From positions 1,380,001 through 1,412,000 of the forward strand of contig CP065004.1 in the NCBI GenBank assembly GCA_016700135.1: 32,000 bases of DNA, given 5' to 3'. Under the pieces are notes generated by a model. That model made no database searches. It worked only from the letters and a program-made list of their open reading frames with translations, and had not been told where the DNA came from. The position numbers were made by a program, and so were the translations under genes. The DNA is from Candidatus Saccharimonadota bacterium. GTDB taxonomy: Bacteria > Patescibacteriota > Microgenomatia > UBA1406 > GWC2-37-13. Positions 886 through 21,358 of this stretch are shown piece after piece (the first letter of the stretch is position 1; each line of letters opens with the position of its first letter).

Positions 886-2294
886 AAGGCTAATAACTCA
901 CGGGGATCAGTGACTACACCGGCAATAGCAGTTGCCGCTGCAGTCAAAGGAGATACGAGCATAGTGCGAGCACCCGGTCCCTGCCTTCCCTCAAAATTTC
1001 TATTACTTGTCGAGACGCAATATTTTCCCGGCGGAATTTTGTCTTCATTCATCCCGAGACAGGCCGAACAACCCGCACCACGAAGCTCAAATCCTGCATC
1101 AGTAAATATTTTATCGAGACCTTCTTTTCTCGCCTGTTCCAGTACCTGTGTCGATCCCGGTACAAGAATCGCCTTTATATGATCTGCTTTTTTTCTGCCT
1201 TTAAGAATTTGTGCAGCAAGACGGAAGTCCTCTATACGTGAATTTGTGCAGCTGCCGAAAAATACATAATCGACTTTCTGGCCGATCATCGGTTGCCCTT
1301 CCTGCAAACCCATGTACTGCAGTGATCTCACTAATTGTTTACGGTCCGATTCTGTATTGAATTCATTTGATTGCGGCACGTGCGCCGTGACTCCTACACC
1401 CATTCCCGGATTGGTACCGTATGTAATCATCGGTTCGATATCTTCTGCATTAAAAACTTCAACGCGGTCATAGACGGCACCTTCATCCGACGGGAGCGTT
1501 TTCCAATATTCAATTGCTTCATCCCAGGCTTTTCCATTCAGCATATATTTCCGTCCTTTCATATATGCAAAGGTCTTTTCATCAGGTGCAATCATTCCGC
1601 CCCGTGCTCCCATCTCGATACTCATATTGCAGATTGTCATCCTGGCTTCCATCGAAAGATCACGGATTGCCGATCCCGTATACTCGACAAAGTATCCGGT
1701 TCCTCCTGACGCACTCAGCTTGGAAATGATATAAAGAATTATATCTTTCGCGACCACTCCTTTTCTCAGTTTTCCGTTAACTTCAATATTCATAGTCTTA
1801 GGTTTATATTGAAGGATTGCCTGTGACGCAAGTACCTGCTCTACTTCACTGGTCCCGATACCGAATGCGATTGATCCGAATGCTCCGTGAGTTGATGTAT
1901 GACTGTCACCGCAAACGATTGTCATCCCGGGTTTAGTAACACCAAGCTCGGGTCCTATGACATGAACAATACCCTGCCAGGGATGACCAAGTCCGAAAAG
2001 TTCGACACCGAATTCGCGACAGTTCTTTTCAAGCATCTGTACCTGTTTCCGTGAAAGCAATTCTTTAATCGGAAGATGCTGATCTTTTGTCGGTACATTG
2101 TGATCTGCTGTCGCCCATGTGCGGTCGACTCTCGATACAGGGATACCTCTTTTCCTCAGTCCGTCAAAAGCCTGAGGGGAAGTAACCTCATGAATAAAGT
2201 GAGCATCGATATACAGAACGGAAGGAAATCCCTCCTCCTGCTTGACTACATGTGCATCCCAGATTTTGTCGAATAATGTTTTCGGTTTCTTCAT
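882..2294 (-). CDS. leuC: 3-isopropylmalate dehydratase large subunit
   Basis: Aconitase-family motifs [26 protein letters not shown] and GCSACLGMN. The track ORF extends to 2552, but that part overlaps ilvC. The real start is taken as [15 protein letters not shown] at 2294, one nt after the ilvC stop. Confidence 0.93.
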
Positions 2295-3745: not shown

Positions 3746-3782
3746 AGGTAATTGGTAAATAATTAATGCACAAAAGATGAAA

Positions 3783-3875
3783 AATGCGGATTTTGAAACT
3801 TTTTCACGCTGCCGCCAGTTTCATACGTGGTGAACGAAATCTAACTCGGCTTGAAAAAGTTCAACAATTCGCATT
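3783..3875. other. 93-nt long imperfect hairpin (element F) between ilvD and ridA
   Basis: The arms AATGCGGATTTTGAAACTTTTTCA (3783-3806) and TGAAAAAGTTCAACAATTCGCATT (3852-3875) are complementary at 20 of 24 positions. The core contains a second small stem. On the minus strand the hairpin is followed by a U-rich run (TTTTTCATCTTTT). Confidence 0.5.
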
Positions 3876-3910
3876 CGAATCTTTTGAAAAATAAAATATT
3901 GAACAAAATC

Positions 3911-5665
3911 TCAACTGGTAACTGCGCCTTTTGACGCACTGGAAACTAATTTTGCATACTTTGCCAATATTCCTCTCTTATATCTGGGTTCAGGTTTTTT
4001 CCAATTTTCCTTCCTCTTTTGCATCTCTTTTGCATCAACGAGAATATTAATCTGGCGTTTATCAACATCTATATCGATAATATCTCCTTCCATTACCATT
4101 GCAATCGGCCCCCCGTCAGCCGCTTCAGGCGCTATATGACCTACCATAATACCGTGCGTCCCTCCCGAGAACCGTCCGTCAGTAATCAATGCCACATCCT
4201 TTCCCATGCCCGCACCCATAAGGGCTGCTGACGGTGAGAGCATTTCTCTCATTCCCGGGCCGCCTTTCGGACCTTCATAACGAATGATAATCACATCTCC
4301 GTGTTTGATTTTTCCGTCAAGAATGGCATTCATAGCATCATCTTCACATTCAAAAACCCTGGCCGGTCCCTTGTGCTGCTTTATCATTTTCCCTGACAAT
4401 TTCATAACTGCCCCCTCTTCAGACATATTCCCTTTCATGATCGCCAGATGATGGCCCGGAGGTGCGAATGGCTTTTCAAGAGATGAAATAATATCCTGAT
4501 TTCGGGGACGTTCAGAGGCATTCTTCAGATTTTCCGCTACGGTTTTACCGGTAACTGTCAGACAATCTCCATGCAACAAACCTGCATCAAGAAGCATTTT
4601 CATCACCATCGGTATGCCCCCGATTTCATTAAGATGCTCCATCATATAATCACCGGACGGACTGAAGTTACCGATTAAGGGCACCTTTTTACCGATTTTT
4701 TCAAAATCATCAATCGAAAGCTCGACATCAGCTTCGTGTGCGAGAGCCAACAGATGAAGAACGGCGTTTGTAGATCCTCCCAATGCCTGTACTACCACAA
4801 TCGCATTCTCAAAAGCCTTTCGCGTCATAATATCACGTGCTCTAATACTTTTTTTCATCAGGTTGAATAATGCTTCCACTGTTTTTGCCACATCTTCCGC
4901 TTTCTTTTCAGATATACGTCCCATCCTGTTCATTGCCGGATGAGAAGCACTTCCCGGAACCGACATCCCCATTGCTTCAATGGCGCTGGCCATAGTATTT
5001 GCGGTATACATACCGCCACAAGCACCGGCACACGGACAGGATCTGGTCTCAATTTCATGAAACTCCTGTTCATTCATCTTTCCCGCAGAATATGCTCCGA
5101 CTGCCTCAAAAACACTGACAATATTTAAATCACGATCTATATATGTGCCCGGGAGAATTGTCCCTCCATACAACGTGATTCCGATAGAGTTATTGCGAGC
5201 CAATGGCATCAATGATGCCGGAATTGTTTTATCACAGCCGGAAAAAGCAATCGTACCGTCTGCAAAATATGCTTCTGACATCATCTCAATCGAATCCGCA
5301 ATCCATTCACGAGAGACAAGAGAATACTTCATACCCTCAGTCCCCATCGTCTCTCCGTCTGTGACAACAGGCGTTCCGAACATATACGGCTTACCGTCAC
5401 ATTTTGCAACTTCATCTTCAGCAATACGGGCAAGCTCGTCAATATGAGCATTACACGGACCCACATCCGTATACGGAGCGGCAATACAAATCAGCGGTTT
5501 TTCAAAATCATCAGTATCGTATCCGACGGCACGCATCATAGCACGAGCAGGAGCTCTCTTCACCCACGATTCTTCTCCCGGACGGCTCGTCAACTCCTCA
5601 CTTCTTCCTTTTAGTTCAGGTTGTTCATCGTGACAGCAGCAGCCGTCTCCACATGTTTTTGACAT
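3911..5665 (-). CDS. ilvD: Dihydroxy-acid dehydratase
   Basis: 584 aa with IlvD/Edd motifs [12 protein letters not shown] and [14 protein letters not shown]. The N-terminus carries an unusual Cys-rich ~20-aa extension. An alternative TTG start at 5593 is possible. Confidence 0.94.
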
Positions 5666-5692
5666 TTATTGTTTTAAAATTCTAATTAGCAA

Positions 5693-5784
5693 GAGCGCAG
5701 TAACCAAAATTTGCGCTGAGGTGGATGTTCGATCCGCCAGCTGGCGGAGAGTTCACCTCTAGCAAATTTTCGGTTACAAGCGAA
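5693..5784. repeat. Intercistronic nested-palindrome element, copy A (92 nt)
   Basis: GAGCGCAGTAACCAAAATTTGCGCTGAGGTGGATGTTCGATCCGCCAGCTGGCGGAGAGTTCACCTCTAGCAAATTTTCGGTTACAAGCGAA. It differs from copy B at 4 positions and lies between the ilvA stop and the ilvD start. Confidence 0.9.
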
Positions 5785-5797
5785 ACTTTATTAAAAA

Positions 5798-7042
5798 CTA
5801 TACAAGATACTCATACAGCATATCCTGTTCAGTCAGCTTCCGGTACTTCAATTCGATCGCATCCATCCGTTCCATCAATGGTTTCAAATCAGATTTATCT
5901 TTTAATTCAATCCCGACAAGTGCCGGAGCCTTTTCCTTATTCGTCTTCTTGATATACTCGAATCGGACAATATCGTCATTGGGACCGAGTGACTCATCAA
6001 GCATCCGTTTCAGCTGACCCGGCTTCTGAGCAAACTCGACAATAAAATAATGCTTTCTTCCCTGATACACCAGACTTTTTTCCATAATTTCCGGATAGCG
6101 CAAAATGTCGTTATTTCCTCCGCTCAACACACACACAACCGTTTTCCCTGCGATCTTTTCCGCAAGATAATCAAGTGCAGAGATTGAAAGCGCTCCTGCC
6201 GGCTCCGAGACAATCCCTTCATTCTGATACAGCTCAATCATTGTCGTACAGTCCTTTCCTTCGGGAACAAGCACGATATCATCAACATATTTTTTTGCGA
6301 TTTCAAAAGTAAGATTTCCGACCGTCCTCACAGCCGCTCCGTCTACAAACGTATCGATCGTATCAAGGGTCACAATCGTATTCTGCTTCATGGATTCAAA
6401 CATCCCGGGTGCACCTTCAGGTTCGACACCGACAATCCGGATATGTTGATTTTTCCCTTTCAAAAACGTCGAAACACCTGATATGAGTCCGCCGCCCCCG
6501 ATAGCGCAAAGCACGAAATCCACTTTTCCTTTGAGTTCTTCAAACAATTCTTTTCCCACCGTACCCTGACCTGCAATTGTCATCGGGTCGTTGAAAGGAT
6601 GGACATATGCAGCATTATTCTCTTTGGCAAATACCTGAGACGCAATACTTGCATCATCAAAAGTGGTCCCGACCAATTTGATATCGACATACCCGTCCCC
6701 GAATTGCTGGACTTTCTCAATTTTCTGATTCGGTGTGACGATCGGCATAAAAATGGTACCGTGCACCTTCAACGCATTACAACTATAAGCAACGCCCTGT
6801 GCATGATTTCCGGCACTGGCACAGACTACACCGTTTTCACGCTGTTTTGCAGTCATCGAAGCCATTTTATTATAAGCCCCCCGTATCTTAAAAGACCGAA
6901 CCTCCTGCAAATCTTCCCGCTTTATGTAGACGTTAGCTTTGTACTTCTTTGATAAGCGGGCTGAGTACTGCAAAGGCGTTTTCTGAGCAATCCCTTTCAG
7001 CCTCTTTGCCGCTTCTTCAATTTCTTTTATCGTGATTTTCAT
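5798..7042 (-). CDS. ilvA: Threonine ammonia-lyase (biosynthetic threonine dehydratase, short form)
   Basis: PLP-lysine motif SFKIRGAY, glycine loop GGGGLISG, and a C-terminal ACT-like regulatory domain. Start chosen at MKITIKEIEEA (7042), because the longer track ORF runs into repeat copy B. Confidence 0.92.
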   Translation of the reverse strand: MKITIKEIEEAAKRLKGIAQKTPLQYSARLSKKYKANVYIKREDLQEVRSFKIRGAYNKMASMTAKQRENGVVCASAGNHAQGVAYSCNALKVHGTIFMPIVTPNQKIEKVQQFGDGYVDIKLVGTTFDDASIASQVFAKENNAAYVHPFNDPMTIAGQGTVGKELFEELKGKVDFVLCAIGGGGLISGVSTFLKGKNQHIRIVGVEPEGAPGMFESMKQNTIVTLDTIDTFVDGAAVRTVGNLTFEIAKKYVDDIVLVPEGKDCTTMIELYQNEGIVSEPAGALSISALDYLAEKIAGKTVVCVLSGGNNDILRYPEIMEKSLVYQGRKHYFIVEFAQKPGQLKRMLDESLGPNDDIVRFEYIKKTNKEKAPALVGIELKDKSDLKPLMERMDAIELKYRKLTEQDMLYEYLV

Positions 7043-7060
7043 AATACTTTTTGGTGCAAT

Positions 7061-7152
7061 GAGCGCAGTAATCAAAATTTGTGCAGAGGTGGATGTTCGA
7101 TCCGCCAGCTGGCGGAGAGTTCACCTCTAACAAATTTTCGGTTACAAGCGAA
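7061..7152. repeat. Intercistronic nested-palindrome element, copy B (92 nt)
   Basis: GAGCGCAGTAATCAAAATTTGTGCAGAGGTGGATGTTCGATCCGCCAGCTGGCGGAGAGTTCACCTCTAACAAATTTTCGGTTACAAGCGAA, between the leuA stop and the ilvA start. Confidence 0.9.
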
Positions 7153-7171
7153 TCATAACCCACAAACAACT

Positions 7172-8683
7172 TTAAATTAATTTATTTAACCCATCAACAT
7201 ACGCCTGTACAGCAGCAACAACAATATCTGTATCAGAGCCGAACCCGTAATGCATCTTCTTCCCGTATTCAAGCTGTACGTTCACACGGCTAATATCATC
7301 CGACCCTTTTGTTACAGCCTGAATCAAAAATTCTTTCAAAACCGGAATTTTTTTCATTAGATCAGAATCTTTTATAATCTGATTGACGCAGTTGTATGAC
7401 GCATCCACCGGACCGTTCCCTGTCTTAGAGGCAATAAATTCATTGCCATTGATTTTCAATTTGACCGATGCCATCGGTTTCAACGGATACCCGCATACCA
7501 CCTCAACAAGATCAATTTGTATTTTCCTCTGTACGTCCCCCGCCCGACCCATCAGCATCTGCAGGTCTTCATCATTGACCTCTTTCTTGCTGTCGGCAAG
7601 CTCCAGAAACTTCGGATACAATGCATCCAATTGCTCCTTATTCAACGTAAATCCCAGCTCCTGCAAACGATGATTCAATGCAGCCCGACCCGATCTTGCT
7701 CCCAAAACAATCTGAGTTTGCTCCAATCCGACATCAGTCGGCTGCATAATCTCAAATGCCTGTTTGTTTTTGAGCATCCCGTCCTGATGAATACCCGAAG
7801 CATGAGCAAATGCATTTGCACCGACAATAGCTTTGTTTGCTTGAACCGGCATCTTCATCAGTCTTGAAACCAAACGGCTTGTCGGATATATCTTTTTGGT
7901 ATTGATGCCCATATCAAAATCCAATCCGTGATTCGTTTTGATTGCCATAATGACCTCCTCGAGCGCAGTGTTCCCCGCCCGTTCTCCGACACCGTTTATA
8001 GTCCCTTCCACCTGTCGAGCACCGTTCACGACGCCTGCCAAAGCGTTCGCAGTCGCCAGACCCAGATCATTGTGACAGTGCACGGCAATCGTGACTTTAT
8101 CAATATTTTTCACATTATCAACCAGATATTTGATCTTCTCCCCGAACTCCCAGGGCATACAATAGCCTGTCGTATCTGGAATATTGATGACGGTCGCCCC
8201 GGCTTCAATAACCTTCTCAACAAAATGTGCCAAAAACTCATTTTCAGTACGTCCTGCATCCATCGGTGAAAACTGCACATCCTCAACATATTTTTTAGCG
8301 TGTTTCACGGCATCGATGGCACGCTGCAGGATTTCTTCCCTTGTCGATTTGAAAACGTATTTAATGTGAATGTCTGAGCTTGAAATAAACGTATGAATCC
8401 GTTTTCGTTTTGCATACTTCAGAGATTCTGCGGCGCAATCAATATCTCCCTTAATCGCACGCGCCAAAGGAGAAATGACCGGTTTAGAAATTGCTTTTGT
8501 GATCTCTACAACCGAATCAAAATCACCTTTTGATGAAATCGGAAAACCCGGTTCAACAACATCGACACCCAATGATTCAAGAGCTTTTGCAACCTCAATT
8601 TTCTCAACAGTGTTCAATTGACACCCCGGAGCCTGTTCACCGTCTCTCAGAGTAGTATCAAAGATATATACTTTGTTTTTCAT
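7172..8683 (-). CDS. leuA: 2-isopropylmalate synthase
   Basis: Motifs FDTTLRDGEQ and HCHNDLGLATANALAG, plus a C-terminal LeuA-type regulatory domain. Start taken at MKNKVYIFDTT (8683), because the track ORF extension translates repeat copy C. Confidence 0.9.
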   Translation of the reverse strand: MKNKVYIFDTTLRDGEQAPGCQLNTVEKIEVAKALESLGVDVVEPGFPISSKGDFDSVVEITKAISKPVISPLARAIKGDIDCAAESLKYAKRKRIHTFISSSDIHIKYVFKSTREEILQRAIDAVKHAKKYVEDVQFSPMDAGRTENEFLAHFVEKVIEAGATVINIPDTTGYCMPWEFGEKIKYLVDNVKNIDKVTIAVHCHNDLGLATANALAGVVNGARQVEGTINGVGERAGNTALEEVIMAIKTNHGLDFDMGINTKKIYPTSRLVSRLMKMPVQANKAIVGANAFAHASGIHQDGMLKNKQAFEIMQPTDVGLEQTQIVLGARSGRAALNHRLQELGFTLNKEQLDALYPKFLELADSKKEVNDEDLQMLMGRAGDVQRKIQIDLVEVVCGYPLKPMASVKLKINGNEFIASKTGNGPVDASYNCVNQIIKDSDLMKKIPVLKEFLIQAVTKGSDDISRVNVQLEYGKKMHYGFGSDTDIVVAAVQAYVDGLNKLI

Positions 8684-8706
8684 ATGTAATGTATGTAATT
8701 TAAATT

Positions 8707-8798
8707 GAGCGCAGTAATCAAAATTTGTGCAGAGGTGGATGTTCGATCCGCCAGCTGGCGGAGAGTTCACCTCTAACAAATTTTCGGTTACTAGCGAA
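8707..8798. repeat. Intercistronic nested-palindrome element, copy C (92 nt)
   Basis: Identical to copy B except for one base (TACTAG versus TACAAG). It lies between ilvN and leuA. Confidence 0.9.
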
Positions 8799-8818
8799 AT
8801 ATTTATAATAAATCTTGG

Positions 8819-8857
8819 ATCCCGGATCGGGGTCCGGGATGACAGCATTCGGCTGTC
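8819..8857 (-). other. Two tandem stem-loops immediately after or overlapping the ilvN stop codon
   Basis: ATCCCGGA-tcgggg-TCCGGGAT (8-bp stem, 8819-8840), then GACAGC-attcg-GCTGTC (6-bp stem, 8841-8857). There is no clear U-tract on the minus strand. Confidence 0.5.
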
Positions 8858-9335
8858 ACTTAAATACTGCAATCCTTCCCGACCTCACAATCTCCTTAAT
8901 GCCAAACGGTTGCAGCAACTCGTCCAGTTTATCGATTTCCTTCTCGTCACCCGTAATCTCAGCTACTAAATAATTCTTATCAATGTGAATTATTCTTCCT
9001 TTTGACAATCGTACCAGTTGTTCGATTTCTTCACGCTTTTCTTTTGTCTTTGCCGTCACCTTGATAAGGGCAATTTCACGCGGCACCAGCTCATCGTCAG
9101 TACTCTCAATGACTTTTGTCATCTCAATGATCCGATACAATTGCTTTCCGATCTTTTCAACAAGATCACGTTCCGCATCGACCACAATCGTAAATCGGGA
9201 CATTCCTTTATGTTCAATCTCCGAAACCGTCAGACTCTCAATATTTATTTTGCGGCGAAGCAGCAAATCAGCAATCCGATACAGGACGCCCGGTTTGTTT
9301 TCTGCTATTGCCGTTATGGTATACCGTTGTTTCAT
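8856..9335 (-). CDS. ilvN: Acetolactate synthase small (regulatory) subunit
   Basis: 159 aa with an N-terminal ACT domain (ENKPGVLYRIADLLLRRKINIESLTV). It sits 9 nt downstream of ilvB. Confidence 0.9.
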   Translation of the reverse strand: MKQRYTITAIAENKPGVLYRIADLLLRRKINIESLTVSEIEHKGMSRFTIVVDAERDLVEKIGKQLYRIIEMTKVIESTDDELVPREIALIKVTAKTKEKREEIEQLVRLSKGRIIHIDKNYLVAEITGDEKEIDKLDELLQPFGIKEIVRSGRIAVFK

Positions 9336-9344
9336 ATGATGTAA

Positions 9345-11036
9345 TTATGCGAGACGTACCTCGTCAACTGATGAACCGGTCGGGATCATGGGAAATACAT
9401 TTTCTTCCTGCTCGACTTTTATCTCAAGTACATACGGACCATTGTGATCAAGCATCTTTTGCAATGCCTTTTTCAGATCAATTCTTGCCACAACACGGTC
9501 TGCTTCCAAACCGCACCCTTTTGCTACTGTCACAAAATCAGGACTCTGAATATTCACCATCGAATACCGCTTTTCAAAGAAAAGCTGCTGCCATTGTCGT
9601 ACCATTCCCAGAAAGCCGTTATTAAGAATAATCACTTTCACTGGAAGCTGCTCCTGAGCCAGAGTAGTAAACTCCTGTATATTCATCTGGATACCCCCGT
9701 CACCTGAAATTGAAATAACTTCCTGATCGGGACGGGCAAATTTTGCACCCATTGCAGCAGGAAGGCCGAATCCCATTGTTCCCATCCCGCCTGAGGAAAT
9801 CCAGCTATTCGGACGGGAAAACCGGTAATATCTTGCCGTAACCATCTGATGTTGTCCGACATCAGACACGACAACGGCTTCTCCTTTTGTCAGTTCAGAC
9901 AGCAGCGTCACTGCTTCTGCCATTGTTATTTCCCCGGTTTTCGGATGTGTGACTCCGTCAATTACTTGTTTCTTTTCTACTTCATAGAGTTTCTTAAATT
10001 CACGTATCCAATTTGTATGAGTGTTTTTACGGATTGCTTTTGTCAGTGATTGCAAAGCAATTTTGGCGTCAGCCACAATCGGCACATCAGCAGGTACATT
10101 TTTATTGAGCTCCGCCGGATCAATATCAATATGAATGACGGTTGCATCATTCAAATAATCGGAAAGCCTGCCTGTCACCCGGTCGTCAAACCGCATTCCG
10201 ATTGCCAAAACAGCATCGGCTTTGTTTGAGAGCATATTCGGAGCATAGTTGCCGTGCATCCCCAAGAAACCGACATGAAGAGGATGTCCTGAATGAAGTG
10301 CGGAAAGACCGTGCAGCGTGAAAGCTGCCGGAAAATCTCCTTTTTCCAGAAACGCTTGAAGTTCTTTTTGAGCTTTGGCAATCTGTACGCCTTGACCTAC
10401 TAATATCAAAGGACGTTCTGCATTGTTTAAATAACGTGCTGCTATCTCTATCTGTCTCTGATGAGGTTCGGTTGTCGGCTGATAACTCTGTAACGAAATG
10501 TCTTCGGGATACGAAAAATCCATCATCTCAAATTGCGCATCTTTGGTGATGTCAATAAGTACCGGTCCGGGTCTGCCGGTACGGGCAATATGAAAAGCCT
10601 TTGCCATCACTTCCGGTATTTCACTTGCTTTTGTGATCTGATAGTTCCATTTGGTGACCGGTGCAGTTATGCCTATCACATCCGCTTCCTGAAATGCATC
10701 GGTACCGATCACTCCGCTGTGTACCTGTCCGGAAATACATACCATCGGGACACTGTCCATCATCGCATCAGCAATAGCCGTCACTAAATTGGTCGCTCCC
10801 GGTCCTGATGTCACGAGACAAACACCCGGATTACCTGTCATCCGGCCGTAGCCTTCGGCAGCATGTCCCGCTCCCTGTTCATGACGGACAAGCACATGCT
10901 TGATCCTTCCGTCATTTGTATAATCATACAGAGCATCGTAAACAGGCATGATAGCCCCTCCGGGATATCCGAATATTACTTCCACATTTTCTTGGAGTAA
11001 CGATTCAAGAACTGCTTGTGAACCTGATATTTTCAT
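9345..11036 (-). CDS. ilvB: Acetolactate synthase large subunit
   Basis: ThDP-enzyme motifs GGMGTMGFGLPAAMGA and GDGGIQMNIQE. Start taken at MKISGSQAVLESL (11036), 2 nt after the ilvE stop. The track start at 11063 would overlap ilvE. Confidence 0.92.
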   Translation of the reverse strand: MKISGSQAVLESLLQENVEVIFGYPGGAIMPVYDALYDYTNDGRIKHVLVRHEQGAGHAAEGYGRMTGNPGVCLVTSGPGATNLVTAIADAMMDSVPMVCISGQVHSGVIGTDAFQEADVIGITAPVTKWNYQITKASEIPEVMAKAFHIARTGRPGPVLIDITKDAQFEMMDFSYPEDISLQSYQPTTEPHQRQIEIAARYLNNAERPLILVGQGVQIAKAQKELQAFLEKGDFPAAFTLHGLSALHSGHPLHVGFLGMHGNYAPNMLSNKADAVLAIGMRFDDRVTGRLSDYLNDATVIHIDIDPAELNKNVPADVPIVADAKIALQSLTKAIRKNTHTNWIREFKKLYEVEKKQVIDGVTHPKTGEITMAEAVTLLSELTKGEAVVVSDVGQHQMVTARYYRFSRPNSWISSGGMGTMGFGLPAAMGAKFARPDQEVISISGDGGIQMNIQEFTTLAQEQLPVKVIILNNGFLGMVRQWQQLFFEKRYSMVNIQSPDFVTVAKGCGLEADRVVARIDLKKALQKMLDHNGPYVLEIKVEQEENVFPMIPTGSSVDEVRLA

Positions 11037-11038
11037 AA

Positions 11039-11977
11039 TTACACTTTGATTTTGGTACACCAACTTTCATATTTTTTCTCGTTGCCGCGTACGACTCTGA
11101 AAAAGAGGTCTTGGAGCGTCCCGGAAACCGTTCCTCTTTTTCCGTTGCCGATCCGTCTTTTATCGATATGCGAAATCCATGCTATTTGAGCGCCCGTCCC
11201 ACAGAAGAATGCTTCATCCGCAACATACAGTTCACTGCGGTCAATCGTACGTTCTTCCACCGGGATACCCTGATCTTTCGCAAGCTGAAGCACTGATCTT
11301 CTCGTGATTCCCTCTAAAATATCATCACTTTTCGGCGGAGTGATCAGTACTCCGTCACGCACCATGCAGAAATTCATGGCTGATCCTTCTGCGACATGCC
11401 CCGATTCATTCAGAAATATCGCTTCGTCATAACCGTTCAAGGTTGCTTCATGTTTTGCCATTGCTGAGTTGATGTATCCGCCGGCTATTTTGGCTCGTGA
11501 AGGGATGGCATTGTCAGAAATCCGTCTCCAGGAAGATACACAAACGCTGATTCCTTTATCAGTCGGCAAATAATCACCCAACGGAATCATATACAAAGCA
11601 AAACTGAACTCATGATCACGATCGAGATTGGGTGATAAATTCGTGCTTCCGGCATAGGCAAATGGGCGGAAGTAGGTATCGGACTGCGGATTATTTTTTT
11701 CGGTAAGATCGGTCGTAATCTTCACAAGTTCCTCTCTGTTGTACTGAAGATCGACTCCGATGATTTTGAGAGAATTAAGAAATCGCTTGTAGTGATCGTC
11801 AATTCTGAAAAGAGAAATAAATCCTTTTTCCTTGTTGTAATAACCCCGTATTCCACCGAAAACAGCTGTCCCGTACTGCAGAGCATTCGTCATAACTGAT
11901 ACTTTTGCATCTTCCGTTTTGACGACTTTGCCCTCAAAAAATGCATAAGGATGTGAGGTAGTTTGAAGATGGGACAT
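11039..11977 (-). CDS. ilvE: Branched-chain amino acid aminotransferase (fold type IV)
   Basis: BCAT-like N-terminus (FFEGKVV...YGTAVFGGIRGY) and GITR motif. Start at MSHLQTT (11977), because the longer track ORF runs through the attenuator terminator. Confidence 0.9.
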   Translation of the reverse strand: MSHLQTTSHPYAFFEGKVVKTEDAKVSVMTNALQYGTAVFGGIRGYYNKEKGFISLFRIDDHYKRFLNSLKIIGVDLQYNREELVKITTDLTEKNNPQSDTYFRPFAYAGSTNLSPNLDRDHEFSFALYMIPLGDYLPTDKGISVCVSSWRRISDNAIPSRAKIAGGYINSAMAKHEATLNGYDEAIFLNESGHVAEGSAMNFCMVRDGVLITPPKSDDILEGITRRSVLQLAKDQGIPVEERTIDRSELYVADEAFFCGTGAQIAWISHIDKRRIGNGKRGTVSGTLQDLFFRVVRGNEKKYESWCTKIKV

Positions 11978-12041
11978 ATATTTGGAAAAAAAATAATAAT
12001 TTCCTTTGGGCTCATTTTTACTTACATAAGCTTTCAAGGCT

Positions 12042-12068
12042 AAAAAAAAACCCGCCTGTCTGGCGGGT
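12042..12068 (-). terminator. Intrinsic terminator of the ilv leader (attenuator)
   Basis: Minus strand: ACCCGCC-agaca-GGCGGGT followed by a run of T residues. It lies about 65 nt upstream of the ilvE ATG and 30 nt downstream of the leader-peptide stop. Confidence 0.8.
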
Positions 12069-12097
12069 GCAAATGTCATTCGAATGCCCTCCCGCCG

Positions 12098-12148
12098 TTA
12101 GCGGTTAATAAGGAGGACAATAAGTGCAAATGACATCGGATTTTTCAT
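12098..12148 (-). CDS. ilv operon leader peptide, 16 aa: MKNPMSFALIVLLINR
   Basis: ATG AAA AAT CCG ATG TCA TTT GCA CTT ATT GTC CTC CTT ATT AAC CGC TAA. Six of seven consecutive codons are Leu/Ile/Val. It sits between the predicted promoter and the terminator, and alternative pairings are available. Confidence 0.7.
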   Translation of the reverse strand: MKNPMSFALIVLLINR

Positions 12149-12160
12149 ACGATAAAAAGT

Positions 12161-12189
12161 ATTATAGAAAACAAATCTTCATAATGCAA
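12161..12189 (-). promoter_or_regulatory. Sigma70-like promoter of the ilv/leu operon
   Basis: Minus strand: TTGCAT (12189-12184), 17-nt spacer, TATAAT (12166-12161). The -35 box begins 9 nt after the aroC stop codon. Confidence 0.6.
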
Positions 12190-12198
12190 ACACAAGCA

Positions 12199-13308
12199 TC
12201 ACACTTCTCCGAATCGTTCCAGAATATTTTGTGCGAGGACATACGCAAGCATCGCTTCAGAAACAACTCCAGCACGTGGTACCACACAGATATCAGACCG
12301 TTCGACGGTCGCTTTTACCTGTTCTTTTGTCGAGATATCGACGGTATTCATCGGCTTGTAAAGTGTTGATATCGGTTTATGATAGACGCGGGCGACAACG
12401 GGCATCCCGTTCGTGACTCCGCCTTCAACGCCTCCCGCACGATTTGTTTTTCGGTAATAACCTTCCTCTTTATTGTGAAAGATCTCATCATGTACATCTG
12501 ATCCAAATGATCCCGAAGCAGAGATACCTGATCCTATCTCAACCGCTTTTACTGACTGAATACTCATCAGTGCCTGAGCAATCTGTCCGTCAATTTTTCT
12601 GTCCCAATGCACATAACTTCCAAGACCCGGAGGAATATTGTTTGCCCATACCTCAACGACACCTCCAAGAGTATTCATTTCCTTGCGTGCTTTTTCAATC
12701 AGTTTTTTCATTCGTTGGGATGTTTTCGGGTCAACACACCGTATCTCGGGATCCTTTTCATACGTTTTTTGAATATCTTCAAAAGTGTATTCTGTGTCAA
12801 TGGAAATATCGCCGATCTGGACGGTATGGCTTGCAATCTCTATTCCGTCTCTCATAAGCAGTTGTTTAAAAACGGCACCGGCAGCAACCCTTGCCGTCGT
12901 CTCGCGGGCAGATGCCCTTTCTAAAACATTTCTGACATCATCAAATCCGTATTTCTGGACGCCCGGAAGGTCGACATGCCCGGGACGCGGCTCAGTCACT
13001 CGGGCCGATGCAACAACTTCTTCAGGCTGCTCTTTGATACTCATCTTGTCACCCCAGTTTTTGAAATCTTTATTCCATATAATCATGGAAATCGGGCTGG
13101 CAATCGTCTTGCCGAAACGAATACCCGACAAGATCTCAACCTCATCTTTTTCAATCAGCATCCGTCCTCCTGATCCTGCTCCTTTCTGCCTTTTTGCAAG
13201 TTCCTGGTTGATGTAGTCAACCGAAATCGGAACACCGGCAGGCATCCCTTCAATAATAACCGTTAATCCTTTGCCGTGCGACTCGCCGGCTGTTAAAAAT
13301 CTAAGCAT
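12199..13308 (-). CDS. aroC: Chorismate synthase
   Basis: 369 aa with the N-terminal signature MLRFLTAGESHG and chorismate synthase similarity throughout. Confidence 0.95.
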   Translation of the reverse strand: MLRFLTAGESHGKGLTVIIEGMPAGVPISVDYINQELAKRQKGAGSGGRMLIEKDEVEILSGIRFGKTIASPISMIIWNKDFKNWGDKMSIKEQPEEVVASARVTEPRPGHVDLPGVQKYGFDDVRNVLERASARETTARVAAGAVFKQLLMRDGIEIASHTVQIGDISIDTEYTFEDIQKTYEKDPEIRCVDPKTSQRMKKLIEKARKEMNTLGGVVEVWANNIPPGLGSYVHWDRKIDGQIAQALMSIQSVKAVEIGSGISASGSFGSDVHDEIFHNKEEGYYRKTNRAGGVEGGVTNGMPVVARVYHKPISTLYKPMNTVDISTKEQVKATVERSDICVVPRAGVVSEAMLAYVLAQNILERFGEV

Positions 13309-13318
13309 TTTATATTAC

Positions 13319-13412
13319 TGAACGAAGTAACCAAAATTTGTGAATGAAGTGGATGTTTGAGCGGACAAGCTTAGGGCGAGTTCACTTCTGAACAAATTTT
13401 CGGTTACGAGTG
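13319..13412. repeat. Intercistronic nested-palindrome element, diverged copy D (~94 nt)
   Basis: GAACGAAGTAACCAAAATTTGTGAATGAAGTGGATGTTTGAGCGGACAAGCTTAGGGCGAGTTCACTTCTGAACAAATTTTCGGTTACGAGTGA. The arms are conserved and the inner stem is changed compensatorily (GAAGTG/CACTTC versus GAGGTG/CACCTC). Confidence 0.8.
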
Positions 13413-13433
13413 ATTTAAAAAATAGTAATAAAT

Positions 13434-14102
13434 TTATATCAACAAACTTTTATACACCTTCTTCATCTCCCCAATCTCTATCTGCCCCGGCGCACTCTCA
13501 CACCACGGAGTAGATGCAAATGTCAGAAAACCCCCGAGAAGCGGAGCAAGAATCCGGGTGATACGTCCCTTCTCTCCCATCCCTATCACAATTCTGTTTT
13601 CCGTATGCGGTTTATTCGTAAGCAACCGATACAACTTTGTGACTTCATACTCTTTCTGTACCATAGTGGCTATTTTCAGGACATCCGGTTTGAACTTACT
13701 CATCTCAAAAATCACCTTTTGCATATCCCAATAACTTGGCGTTTCAACAAAATTGTGATATGACAAAATAACTTTAGTACCGTCTTCGCAGCTGAAATCA
13801 TGTTTTTTGACCGTCGATAATTCAATATCAACATATTCAAAAAGTCCGATCCCGCGCTGAAGAATTTTGACCCGTTGATTTTCCGGATCCTCGAAACTTC
13901 CGCCTTCCTCTTTTGATCTGCAGGTAAAAATCGCTTCTTTCTTCGTCTGATCTTTGATAGTTCGGATATGATCCATAGACAACCCTCGGATCGAATCAAC
14001 ACGAAGTTCAATACAGTCAGAAATGTCCTGTGTTTTTGCAAGATTACTCAAAAATTCATCTATGGTGCCTCCTGTGACCGGAGTGCAGATTTTGATATCC
14101 AT
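13434..14102 (-). CDS. aroD: 3-dehydroquinate dehydratase, type I
   Basis: 222 aa with type I DHQase features (ELRVD, SYHNF, and the Schiff-base lysine context KIATM). Confidence 0.88.
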   Translation of the reverse strand: MDIKICTPVTGGTIDEFLSNLAKTQDISDCIELRVDSIRGLSMDHIRTIKDQTKKEAIFTCRSKEEGGSFEDPENQRVKILQRGIGLFEYVDIELSTVKKHDFSCEDGTKVILSYHNFVETPSYWDMQKVIFEMSKFKPDVLKIATMVQKEYEVTKLYRLLTNKPHTENRIVIGMGEKGRITRILAPLLGGFLTFASTPWCESAPGQIEIGEMKKVYKSLLI

Positions 14103-15746: not shown

Positions 15747-15835
15747 GACCGCAAAATAATCAAAATTTGTCTTATCATAACTGCCATCCATTATAGATCT
15801 GGCTTTATGAAAAGCAAATTTTCGGTTACAAGCGC
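15747..15835. repeat. Intercistronic element, copy E (arms conserved, different core)
   Basis: GACCGCAAAATAATCAAAATTTG ... CAAATTTTCGGTTACAAGCGC. The core is replaced by CTTATCATAA...TTATGAAAAG and GCCA...TGGC stems. The 3' arm overlaps the last codons and the stop of aroA. Confidence 0.65.
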
Positions 15836-17109
15836 TTTTGATATTCCAATCCAATTGCTCTCAATTTCTCCCAATACTCAGGAAACGTTTTTTTCACAAC
15901 TTCAGGATCGTTAATCTTCATCCCTTCAATTTTTGCTCCCGCCATCGCAAAACTCATCGCCATACGGTGATCGTGATAGGTGTCAATAACCGCCGCATGA
16001 GGTTTTCCTCCGAACACGTGCAAAGAATCTTCATCAGGTGACTCCGTGCGTATACCCATTTTAGCAAGTTCCTGTTGTACCGCCTTAACCCGTTCCGTTT
16101 CCTTCACCCTGAGGGAACGTACTCCCGTCATTTTTGTCACTCCTTCAGCAAACGCCGCAAGAACCGCAAGAGTCTGCGCCTGATCGGGACAGCTTTCCAT
16201 ATCAACTTCGAGTGCCCGGACACCGGTCCCTTTTATCGTTATCCTATCCTCGTCGTACACAACTTCATTTCCCATTTTTTGAATAATTTCCAGAAATTTT
16301 TTATCACCCTGTGTAGAATCCTGACGTAGATTCTTCAATGTGATTGTCATGCCCGTAAGAGCCGCAATACCCGCAAAATAACCCGCCGCAGAGTAATCTC
16401 CTTCAACGATATATTCACTCATTCTGTACGATCCGGCAGGAACTTCATACCATTTATAATCATTGTTCTGAACGGAAACTCCCCATTCCCGCATCATCTC
16501 GAGTGTGATATCTATATATGATTTTGAGATCTGGTTTCCCTCAACTTCGATTGTCATACCGCCGATTACGGGAGCTATCAAAAGTAACGCTGTAAAATAT
16601 TGACTGCTCACATCCCCATGCATTCGAACGAATCTTTTAGTGACCGTTGACTGATGAACGGCAATAGGAGGAAACCCATCCTGATTTTCGTATACTATCT
16701 CGATCCCCATCTGACGCAATCCGTCAACCAGATCTTTTATCGGGCGCTCATTCAGACGACCGATTCCGAAAATCTTTTTTACACCCGGGACAATCGCTGC
16801 CAGTGCGGTTATAAATCTTATAGTTGTTCCTGACAATCTCGCATTCAGTTCATATCCGCTTTTCTTTACATCAGCAATACTTCCGCGGACAATGACCTCA
16901 TGATCACGCTTTTCTATCTTGATGCCAAGCGTTTGCAGACACTCAATCATTGCTTCAGTATCATCACTCCACAACGGATATTTGATCGTCACCGCGCCCC
17001 GCGTCAATGCCGCCATAACGAGTGCCCGATTGGTCACACTTTTTGATCCCGGTATGACAACGGTTGCCTCCACCGGTTTTTGAATTGGTTTTAATTGTAT
17101 TTGTTTCAT
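15826..17109 (-). CDS. aroA: 3-phosphoshikimate 1-carboxyvinyltransferase (EPSP synthase)
   Basis: 427 aa with the N-terminal motif PGSKSVTNRAL and EPSPS similarity throughout. Confidence 0.95.
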   Translation of the reverse strand: MKQIQLKPIQKPVEATVVIPGSKSVTNRALVMAALTRGAVTIKYPLWSDDTEAMIECLQTLGIKIEKRDHEVIVRGSIADVKKSGYELNARLSGTTIRFITALAAIVPGVKKIFGIGRLNERPIKDLVDGLRQMGIEIVYENQDGFPPIAVHQSTVTKRFVRMHGDVSSQYFTALLLIAPVIGGMTIEVEGNQISKSYIDITLEMMREWGVSVQNNDYKWYEVPAGSYRMSEYIVEGDYSAAGYFAGIAALTGMTITLKNLRQDSTQGDKKFLEIIQKMGNEVVYDEDRITIKGTGVRALEVDMESCPDQAQTLAVLAAFAEGVTKMTGVRSLRVKETERVKAVQQELAKMGIRTESPDEDSLHVFGGKPHAAVIDTYHDHRMAMSFAMAGAKIEGMKINDPEVVKKTFPEYWEKLRAIGLEYQKRL

Positions 17110-21199: not shown

Positions 21200-21200
21200 T

Positions 21201-21225
21201 AAAAAACCCCGCCTTGCGGGCGGGG
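21201..21225 (-). terminator. Intrinsic terminator of the aro leader (attenuator)
   Basis: Minus strand: CCCCGCC-cgcaa-GGCGGGG followed by TTTTTT. The T-run ends 1 nt before the ATG at 21199. Confidence 0.8.
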
Positions 21226-21241
21226 TGGTGATTGTTATGTT

Positions 21242-21322
21242 TTAAGCACAACTTCCCACGCCGCCCGAGGCGGTAAAGTAAAAGTAAAAATAAAAGCTGT
21301 TGTGGGAAGCTTTTTGTATCAT
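21242..21322 (-). CDS. aro operon leader peptide, 26 aa: MIQKASHNSFYFYFYFTASGGVGSCA
   Basis: ATG ATA CAA AAA GCT TCC CAC AAC AGC TTT TAT TTT TAC TTT TAC TTT ACC GCC TCG GGC GGC GTG GGA AGT TGT GCT TAA. Seven consecutive alternating Phe/Tyr codons lie just upstream of the 1:2 / 2:3 / 3:4 pairing segments. Confidence 0.75.
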   Translation of the reverse strand: MIQKASHNSFYFYFYFTASGGVGSCA

Positions 21323-21329
21323 AAATTCA

Positions 21330-21357
21330 ATTGTAACAGAGAAACCGGCGCTGTCAA
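21330..21357 (-). promoter_or_regulatory. Sigma70-like promoter of the aro operon (extended -10)
   Basis: Minus strand: TTGACA (21357-21352), 16-nt spacer ending in TGT, TACAAT (21335-21330). The -35 box starts 1 nt after the upstream gene's stop. The leader ATG is 7 nt downstream of the -10. Confidence 0.7.
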
Positions 21358-21358
21358 C

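Follow-up and report, generated by a model that had tools for sequence, protein, structure and literature searches.

Proteobacteria and Firmicutes are well known to carry intergenic palindromic repeats (REP/REPIN, MITEs), and the bacterial MITEs include Correia/NEMIS in Neisseria and ERIC/IRU in Enterobacteriaceae. In rRNA, the intervening sequences (IVS) without an ORF are extended hairpins of ~90-150 nt that are removed by RNase III, while the ORF-bearing IVS carry PF05635 genes. No intergenic palindromic repeat of CPR/Patescibacteria is described in the literature searched. As CPR genomes are tiny and tightly packed, insertions of ~100 nt that split 8-16-bp junctions in essential biosynthetic operons are notable there. 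The hairpin repeat of Roizmanbacteria intergenic gaps presented here, family X, is previously undescribed.

REPINs are REP doublets forming hairpins, found in Pseudomonas fluorescens SBW25 (PMC3116915). Like REPINs, which are 70-110 nt long, family X is extragenic and multi-copy, with two conserved inverted ends around a looser spacer; in both, one long hairpin is predicted in single-stranded DNA or mRNA, selection rather than drift is indicated, and copies are sometimes clustered (PMC3116915). In contrast to REPINs, the arms of family X are A/T-rich and carry no self-folding GC-rich REP: GAGCGNAGTAAYCAAAATTTG and CAAATTTTCGGTTACRAGCG hold only the A/T quasi-palindrome CAAAATTTG, and a REP-type stem-loop within the arms is absent from every fold computed. 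Furthermore, no RAYT gene is linked to family X in the fetched loci, its cores fall into discrete unrelated types, and its host is a CPR bacterium and not a proteobacterium. REPINs are thus the closest described analogue; membership in that class is not established.

The family also resembles the MITEs. It is small, non-coding and multi-copy, with terminal inverted repeats; it lies between genes, also within operons where the hairpins are co-transcribed, and it shows presence/absence polymorphism and sub-families. Unlike in MITEs, neither a target-site duplication nor a parent insertion sequence was identified for it. To our knowledge, Correia/NEMIS and ERIC/IRU are not typically described as having a strong strand asymmetry (G.U, tandem G.A) or a conserved single-base bulge. 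The rRNA IVS are likewise rod-like hairpins with paired ends, of a size similar to that of family X, but all the family X copies found lie between protein-coding genes and none in rRNA.

The window (the whole stretch of 32,000 nucleotides that was analysed) appears from its sequence to belong to Candidatus Roizmanbacteria, a CPR bacterium. Its aroC product is 100% identical to "chorismate synthase [Candidatus Roizmanbacteria bacterium]" in a homology search, and the remainder is CPR-like (DUF4012, PilO, a short RecO, all genes on one strand). Pfam matches delineate two operons on the minus strand, namely ilvE-ilvB-ilvN-leuA-ilvA-ilvD-ridA-ilvC-leuCD and a second one with a DAHP synthase-like gene, chorismate mutase, tyrA, pheA, aroB, aroA, aroK, aroE, aroD and aroC. 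In this Roizmanbacteria genome, the pathways for branched-chain and aromatic amino acids are apparently complete and lie in two long operons. Such completeness is unusual, the CPR group being described as limited in biosynthetic capabilities.

Repeat and pattern searches returned the five copies of the preliminary description, A to E (Table 1), in gaps of ~125-130 bp. The arm motif has 13 matches in the window, above every one of 100 shuffles (mean 6.1). As the five copies are on the plus strand and the operons on the minus strand, all five are antisense to the operon transcripts. Copy D, between aroC (12199-13308) and aroD (13434-14102), both on the minus strand, reads as first described over 13319-13412, with arms GTAACCAAAATTTGT and ACAAATTTTCGGTTAC, inner stem GAAGTG/CACTTC and apex GCGGACAAGCTTAGGGCG. 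Its position was correctly placed; its end was set too short, the element reaching ~13417 and including a basal helix.

Table 1. Copies of family X, helices of copy D, core types and PF05635 cassettes. Positions refer to the window unless a locus is named.
Feature	Positions	Strand	Location or pairing	Sequence and remarks
Copy A	5692-5787	+	ilvD-ilvA gap	type-1 core; derived CCGCCAGCTGGCGG apex
Copy B	7060-7155	+	ilvA-leuA gap	type-1 core; apex as in A
Copy C	8706-8801	+	leuA-ilvN gap	equals B from TGAGCGCAG to GGTTAC
Copy D	13319-13417	+	aroC-aroD gap	complete type-1 element; model R1 105.5 bits, E = 5.6e-20
Copy E	15748-15839	+	aroK-aroA gap	arms as A-D; type-2 core TCATAACTGCCATCCATT...CTGGCTTTATGA
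D basal helix P1	13322-13323 (AC)	+	13410-13411 (GT)	hand-derived structure
D outer helix P2, 5' arm	13327-13341	+		GTAACCAAAATTTGT
D outer helix P2, 3' arm	13392-13407	+		ACAAATTTTCGGTTAC; bulged C at 13401
D inner helix P3	13346-13353 (GAAGTGGA)	+	13381-13388 (TTCACTTC)	includes G.U wobble
D bulge	13354-13357	+		4 nt; precedes P4
D helix P4	13358-13362 (TGAGC)	+	13376-13380 (GCGAG)	tandem sheared G.A/A.G
D apical loop	13363-13375	+		GGACAAGCTTAGG; variable part of the family, ~13 nt
Core type 1			A-D	GARGTGGATGTTYGAGC-loop-GGCGAGTTCACYTC
Core type 2			E	TTCATAACTSGCCATCCATT...CTGGCTTTATGAA
Core type 3			L036	
Core type 4			L039, L045, L053, L076	113 nt
PF05635 cassette	L016 17758-18120			bounded by ~25-nt inverted repeats (GTAG/GTAA motifs)
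PF05635 cassette	L016 14518-14942			bounded by ~25-nt inverted repeats (GTAG/GTAA motifs)
PF05635 cassette	L017 17423-17785			bounded by ~25-nt inverted repeats (GTAG/GTAA motifs)

The element, ~90-115 nt long, folds into a nearly continuous rod-like hairpin. The predicted energy of copy D is -33.8 kcal/mol (z = -6.3; 0/200 shuffles as good), and copies A and B reach -45.8 and -42.7 kcal/mol (z = -6.8 and -6.5), a value not equalled by any shuffle. The RNAalifold consensus mis-paired the core, and a hand-derived structure, checked against slid controls, was used instead. From the base upwards, it reads U-A, G.A, A.G, G-C, C-G, followed by a small internal loop. Most copies have a tandem G.A next to P1 (UGAGC/GCGAA); these two columns, outside P1, read G.A/A.G, or A-U/A-U in some copies, and P1 itself covaries from G-C to A-U in D and L004 and from C-G to U-A in L001. 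P2 comprises 15 bp, of which the fifth is a U.G wobble in 26/33 copies, and the bulged C of its 3' arm is present in 33/33. The P2/P3 junction reads U-A, G.A, A.G again in most type-1 copies. P3 has 8 bp with a G.U at its end, and its third pair shows A-U/G-C covariation. Above the 4-nt bulge, P4 is ordered C-G, G.A, A.G, G-C, C-G; its tandem G.A/A.G is flanked by Watson-Crick or wobble pairs, the columns being G.A in 16 copies and A.G in 16. The succession of P3, a 4-nt bulge and C-G, G.A, A.G is conserved in type-1 copies and may resemble a K-turn. In a canonical K-turn, however, a 3-nt bulge is followed directly by the tandem G.A, while the element has a 4-nt bulge or an intervening C-G pair.

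Both compensatory changes pointed out earlier are present: A has TTTGC/GCAAA where B, C and D have TTTGT/ACAAA, and A-C have GAGGTG/CACCTC where D has GAAGTG/CACTTC. Pairing is also maintained in larger alignments, where changes on both sides of a pair exceed those of shuffles. In a structure-blind MAFFT alignment of 15 type-1 copies, 97.6% of the cells are paired (slid controls 29-48%) and five pairs changed on both sides, which 3/500 shuffles reach; the counts of this and the following alignment are of cells, not of independent events, and are inflated by shared ancestry. An alignment of 33 copies (A6) has 93.1% of its cells paired (slid controls 31-45%) and 15/30 pairs changed on both sides, with 0/500 shuffles reaching any measure, although A6 is model-fitted and leans towards the model, which raises its counts. 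The arms show AAAATTTGT/ACAAATTTT against AAAATGTAC/GTACATTTT and AAAATTTAC/GTAAATTTT; AAAATTTGC/GCAAATTTT is a further clear case, and the two UBA1450 copies have GTGAGTA/TACTCAC in place of GAAGTG/CACTTC. The clearest of these columns are anchored by invariant sequence and thus cannot be produced by the alignment.

The suggestion that pairing rather than sequence is selected holds in its first half only. Pairing is kept by compensatory change, but the arm sequence is almost invariant as well, partly because both collection patterns demanded exact matches in parts of the arms. The outer helices are indeed the most conserved feature; at least four unrelated cores are found between the same arms. 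That covariation proves a host RNA function is not supported, since a mobile palindromic repeat fits the pattern equally well.

The fold depends on the strand: only the plus strand has the G.U wobbles and the three tandem G.A motifs. The stems on this strand hold 56 G.T cells against 7 A.C cells, and the plus strand is more stable than the minus strand, by a mean of 9.7 kcal/mol, in 19/19 copies binned as type 1 (17 type-1 copies and two type-3 copies of L036). An attempt to read the replication strand from GC skew was dropped: the sense strand is rich in both G and A, a coding effect, so that the window gives no replication direction.

In total, 33 distinct copies were assembled; their sources are four metagenome samples, UBA1450, two related MAGs and the orthologous locus. 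When one genome per species was scanned for an exact two-arm pattern, true relatives turned up in UBA1450 and the two MAGs only. A covariance model (R1) built on 15 copies then added further ones from these loci, from metagenome contigs and from a syntenic relative, and removed as chance matches 5/15 genome matches and most of 80 metagenome loci. UBA1450 is labelled Roizmanbacteria and the two MAGs Gammaproteobacteria. The latter, CAZDDM01 and CAYMVU01 (L003-L005, L008-L010, L012, L014), are titled "uncultured Gammaproteobacteria", a label that is probably wrong given the 90% DNA identity of L003 to the window and the common repeat family.

The arm consensus, GAGCGNAGTAAYCAAAATTTG ... CAAATTTT-C-GGTTACRAGCG, is near-invariant over ~25 nt, and the ends common to all copies read GAGCGNAG-TAAYCAAAATTTG ... 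CAAATTTT-C-GGTTAC-RAGCG. The sub-family of copy D, GAATGAAGTGG...CACTTCTGAAC, also occurs at the non-orthologous loci L004, L005 and L012. Elsewhere, copies are flanked by unrelated housekeeping genes (6PGD, ribonucleotide reductase (RNR), TIM, ClpB, LexA, CoaBC, PyrD, MsrA), and they lie between convergent, divergent and co-directional genes. Between co-directional genes, the structured strand is antisense at ~11/13 sites and sense at 2/13, based on approximate ORF calls. Two adjacent copies are found in L003 (7806-7952). In L002 of UBA1450, a copy of family X (1489-1583, plus strand) stands back to back with one of another hairpin family, Y (1596-1693, minus strand), between convergent genes, an arrangement that resembles clustered REP-type repeats.

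No Rfam 15 family matches the element at gathering thresholds; at E <= 10 the sole overlap is a chance-level miRNA model with 24.8 bits against a gathering score of 54. BLAST gave no match in plasmids. In viral sequences, 74/74 pattern matches have no recognisable 5' arm, and the four that passed a relaxed arm filter are unlike the element.

Copy D had been regarded as a diverged copy that lost the inner palindrome, and the family comparison reverses this picture. Against the family model, D scores 105.5 bits and A-C ~98. In L003, the locus orthologous to window 3903-11682 (90% DNA identity), the orthologues of A and B retain the A- and B-specific arm variants and carry a D-like GAGC-loop-GGCGAG apex. 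The CCGCCAGCTGGCGG palindrome is thus a lineage-specific gain in A, B and C. The paired halves of the orthologous stems differ at 3/154 positions while the flanking 4.8 kb diverged by 9.4%, and the orthologous apices differ at 19/30 positions (8-11 of 15 columns per copy). By this comparison, CCGCCAGCTGGCGG is a recent apex replacement common to the three neighbouring copies. Copy C as a whole is a copy of B; the leuA-ilvN gap is occupied by type 1 (copy C) in the window and by type 2 in L003 and L018. Such a swap of apices between neighbouring copies would most simply be explained by short-patch exchange, with the identical stems serving as homology.

The syntenic operons of relatives show a family that spreads into gaps between genes and is turned over at these sites. 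In L016 and L017 (aroC 88% identical), the leuA-ilvA, aroA-aroK and aroD-aroC gaps measure 8, 16 and 69 bp, and there is no copy of family X anywhere in the fetched loci. L018 (85%) has copies at ilvN-leuA and leuA-ilvA only, its aroD-aroC, aroA-aroK, ilvA-ilvD and ilvD-ridA gaps being occupied by other hairpin families. L019 (80%) has no family X copy and other hairpin families in five gaps. The occupant of the aroD-aroC gap is thus family X in the window and another hairpin family in both L018 and L019, and insertion polymorphism between related genomes, as known from MITEs, is found.

The gaps of these relatives also harbour other insertions. In L016, the ilvA-ilvD and ilvN-leuA gaps contain small PF05635 genes (23S_rRNA_IVP/four-helix-bundle family). 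The same operon gaps that receive family X in the window thus hold, in L016/L017, PF05635 genes bounded by inverted repeats, a parallel to the IVS; the ends of these IVP cassettes are unrelated to the family X arm sequences. The ilvN-leuA insertion is missing from L017, which makes it a polymorphism between the near-identical contigs L016 and L017. An ORF-less 86-nt miniature of the PF05635-cassette repeat lies in the ilvD-ridA gap of this close relative.

The element behaves as a small selfish or mobile palindrome and not as a regulator of aromatic amino-acid genes. Family X is probably a REPIN/MITE-like non-autonomous palindromic element whose single-stranded plus-strand hairpin is recognised and preserved. 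This hairpin would be the substrate recognised by whatever propagates the element; we infer the enzyme, the single-strandedness and the DNA or RNA nature of the substrate alike. Recognition of the hairpin would explain the kept pairing, the G.U pairs, the bulged C, the tandem G.A and the free apex. Any effect on the surrounding operon mRNA would probably be a by-product.

In ~190 kb of element-bearing loci, the copies have no recognised transposase, RAYT or integrase nearby, and 0/26 flanking ORFs matched a transposase in Pfam or NCBIfam (loci up to ~21 kb). The same ~190 kb contain no long element with the same arms, which occur only as short pairs. Long-range arm pairs in L064 and L072, considered as an autonomous parent element, were rejected as chance matches. 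The boundaries show no recurrent direct repeat indicative of a target-site duplication, the comparison of filled and empty sites being blurred by divergence. Two further findings speak against a mobile element. The near-identity of the stems over ~10% genome divergence exceeds what is expected of a decaying selfish repeat, and points to purifying selection or continuing homogenisation. The antisense bias (~11/13) could point to an interaction with transcription. Strong stem conservation and orientation bias are only partly explained by a mobile palindrome.

Several sequence-unrelated hairpin families of Roizmanbacteria, X, Y, Z, V and W, occupy the same operon gaps of relatives. Family Y reads GAGCGCAG-ATATCC-TTTTTCTGCTAC ... 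GTAGCCAAGAAA-C-AAGGGTATC-AAGCGA. It has GAGCGCAG/AAGCGA flanks, a basal U.G wobble and a bulged C as in X, while the helix sequence differs. X and Y follow the same structural plan, consisting of GAGCG.AG/RAGCG flanks with tandem G.A, a 5-6-bp basal stem with U.G, a single bulged base in the 3' arm and then an A/T-rich helix; Z is looser. It is conceivable, though doubtful, that this common plan marks a dedicated, unrecognised structure-specific one-strand system in CPR bacteria. Candidates would be a novel single-strand DNA transposition/recombination machinery, or an IVS-like selfish RNA hairpin excised from transcripts. In such a system, the conserved scaffold could serve as the handle and the hypervariable apex or core as the exchangeable part.

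Another hairpin of this region, long and imperfect (~-40 kcal/mol), lies at window 3775-3885 downstream of ilvD. It belongs to another family and is related to the element of the orthologous ilvD-ridA gap in L018; L003 has in its place a type-2 copy and a partial type-1 copy of family X. Two short GC-rich hairpins, GGATCCCGGATCGGGGTCCGGGATG and TGACAGCATTCGGCTGTCA, are located between copy C and the ilvN stop codon (8812-8858) and are absent from the orthologous L003 gap.

The element might instead serve the host within the polycistronic mRNA, where the rod would determine processing or stability, for instance as a cleavage site for RNase III or as a barrier to 3'-exonucleases, and would uncouple the fates of neighbouring cistrons. 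All five window copies lie between cistrons of two attenuator-controlled operons, the orthologous stems are almost unchanged over ~10% divergence of coding DNA, the fold is backed by covariation, and the orientation relative to genes is biased (~11:2). However, at most sites the mRNA does not contain the strand that bears the G.U and G.A features, and the fold in mRNA sense is weaker by ~10 kcal/mol. Copies also lie between convergent and divergent genes, the L016/L017 operon works element-free with gaps of 8-16 bp, and one gap can hold differing cores and even differing families. Since the structured strand is usually untranscribed and relatives do without the element, we consider a role in the operon mRNA unlikely.

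The plus-strand features could also belong to an independently transcribed small antisense or structured RNA, in which a conserved scaffold of helices, tandem G.A and possibly a K-turn-like motif would present a variable apical "specificity" loop. The wobbles, the three tandem G.A motifs and the single-base bulges are on the plus strand only, the apex is hypervariable on a conserved scaffold, and most copies are antisense to the adjoining genes. Against this, the plus strand has no recurrent promoter-like site upstream or terminator downstream, their counts equalling the shuffled expectation. Four unrelated cores share the same arms, the element is sense-oriented at two sites, and Rfam gives no match. 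Such an RNA is thus quite improbable.

Integron attC sites show the same combination of conserved ends, a variable centre and a strand-specific single-strand fold with an extrahelical base that outweighs sequence. The length (~60-140 nt), the ends containing AAY...GTT and the extrahelical base in the 3' arm would suit an attC or another single-strand recombination site, and ilvA and leuA, each singly bracketed by two copies, would be cassette-like. The core sites RYYYAAC ... GTTRRRY are nevertheless not those of family X, which has TAAT at the 5' side in 26/33 copies instead of AAC (U.G in 26 copies, C-G in 6) and GTTACRA at the 3' side. There is only one extrahelical base. The orientations are mixed, and copies also stand between convergent or divergent housekeeping genes. 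Rather than a co-oriented cassette array beside an integrase, the genes between the copies form a conserved core operon, with the same gene order in element-free relatives, and the scanned neighbours include no integrase. A recombination site of this kind is very improbable.

A pathway-specific riboswitch- or leader-like cis-regulator of amino-acid biosynthesis, suggested by the position of 5/5 window copies in such operons, is scarcely credible and was rejected because copies elsewhere flank unrelated genes; the element is also dispensable in relatives, and both operons have their own leader-peptide attenuators. An intrinsic terminator was rejected as well, as no T run follows the hairpin and no element is among the terminator-like sites of either strand.

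Family X provides a clean collection of natural substitutions that preserve a fold, a marker to track Roizmanbacteria lineages and a handle towards the enzyme moving such hairpins in CPR bacteria. In annotation, the aro and ilv operons should not be credited with a riboswitch or leader on account of this element, as they have leader-peptide attenuators of their own.

The first of these attenuators, of the classical kind, is located upstream of ilvE on the minus strand (window 12041-12198), with a promoter-like TTTGCA-18-TATAAT. Its leader ORF MKNPMSFALIVLLINR* (16 codons, 12148-12098) is rich in Leu/Ile/Val; alternative pairings are present, and T9 follows the terminator ACCCGCCAGACAGGCGGGT. 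The listed start of the ilvE ORF (12079) is consequently too far upstream. L016, L018 and L019 have kept the leader peptide, and the leader-like Rfam matches are weak. The second attenuator, also on the minus strand (21200-21358), precedes the first gene of the aro operon, which is DAHP-synthase-like, with TTGACA-17-TACAAT. Its leader ORF MIQKASHNSFYFYFYFTASGGVGSCA* (21322-21242) contains seven alternating Phe/Tyr codons, and T6 follows its terminator CCCCGCCCGCAAGGCGGGG. L018 has this attenuator as well, in conserved form. Attenuation by the ribosome in a CPR bacterium may merit attention in its own right.
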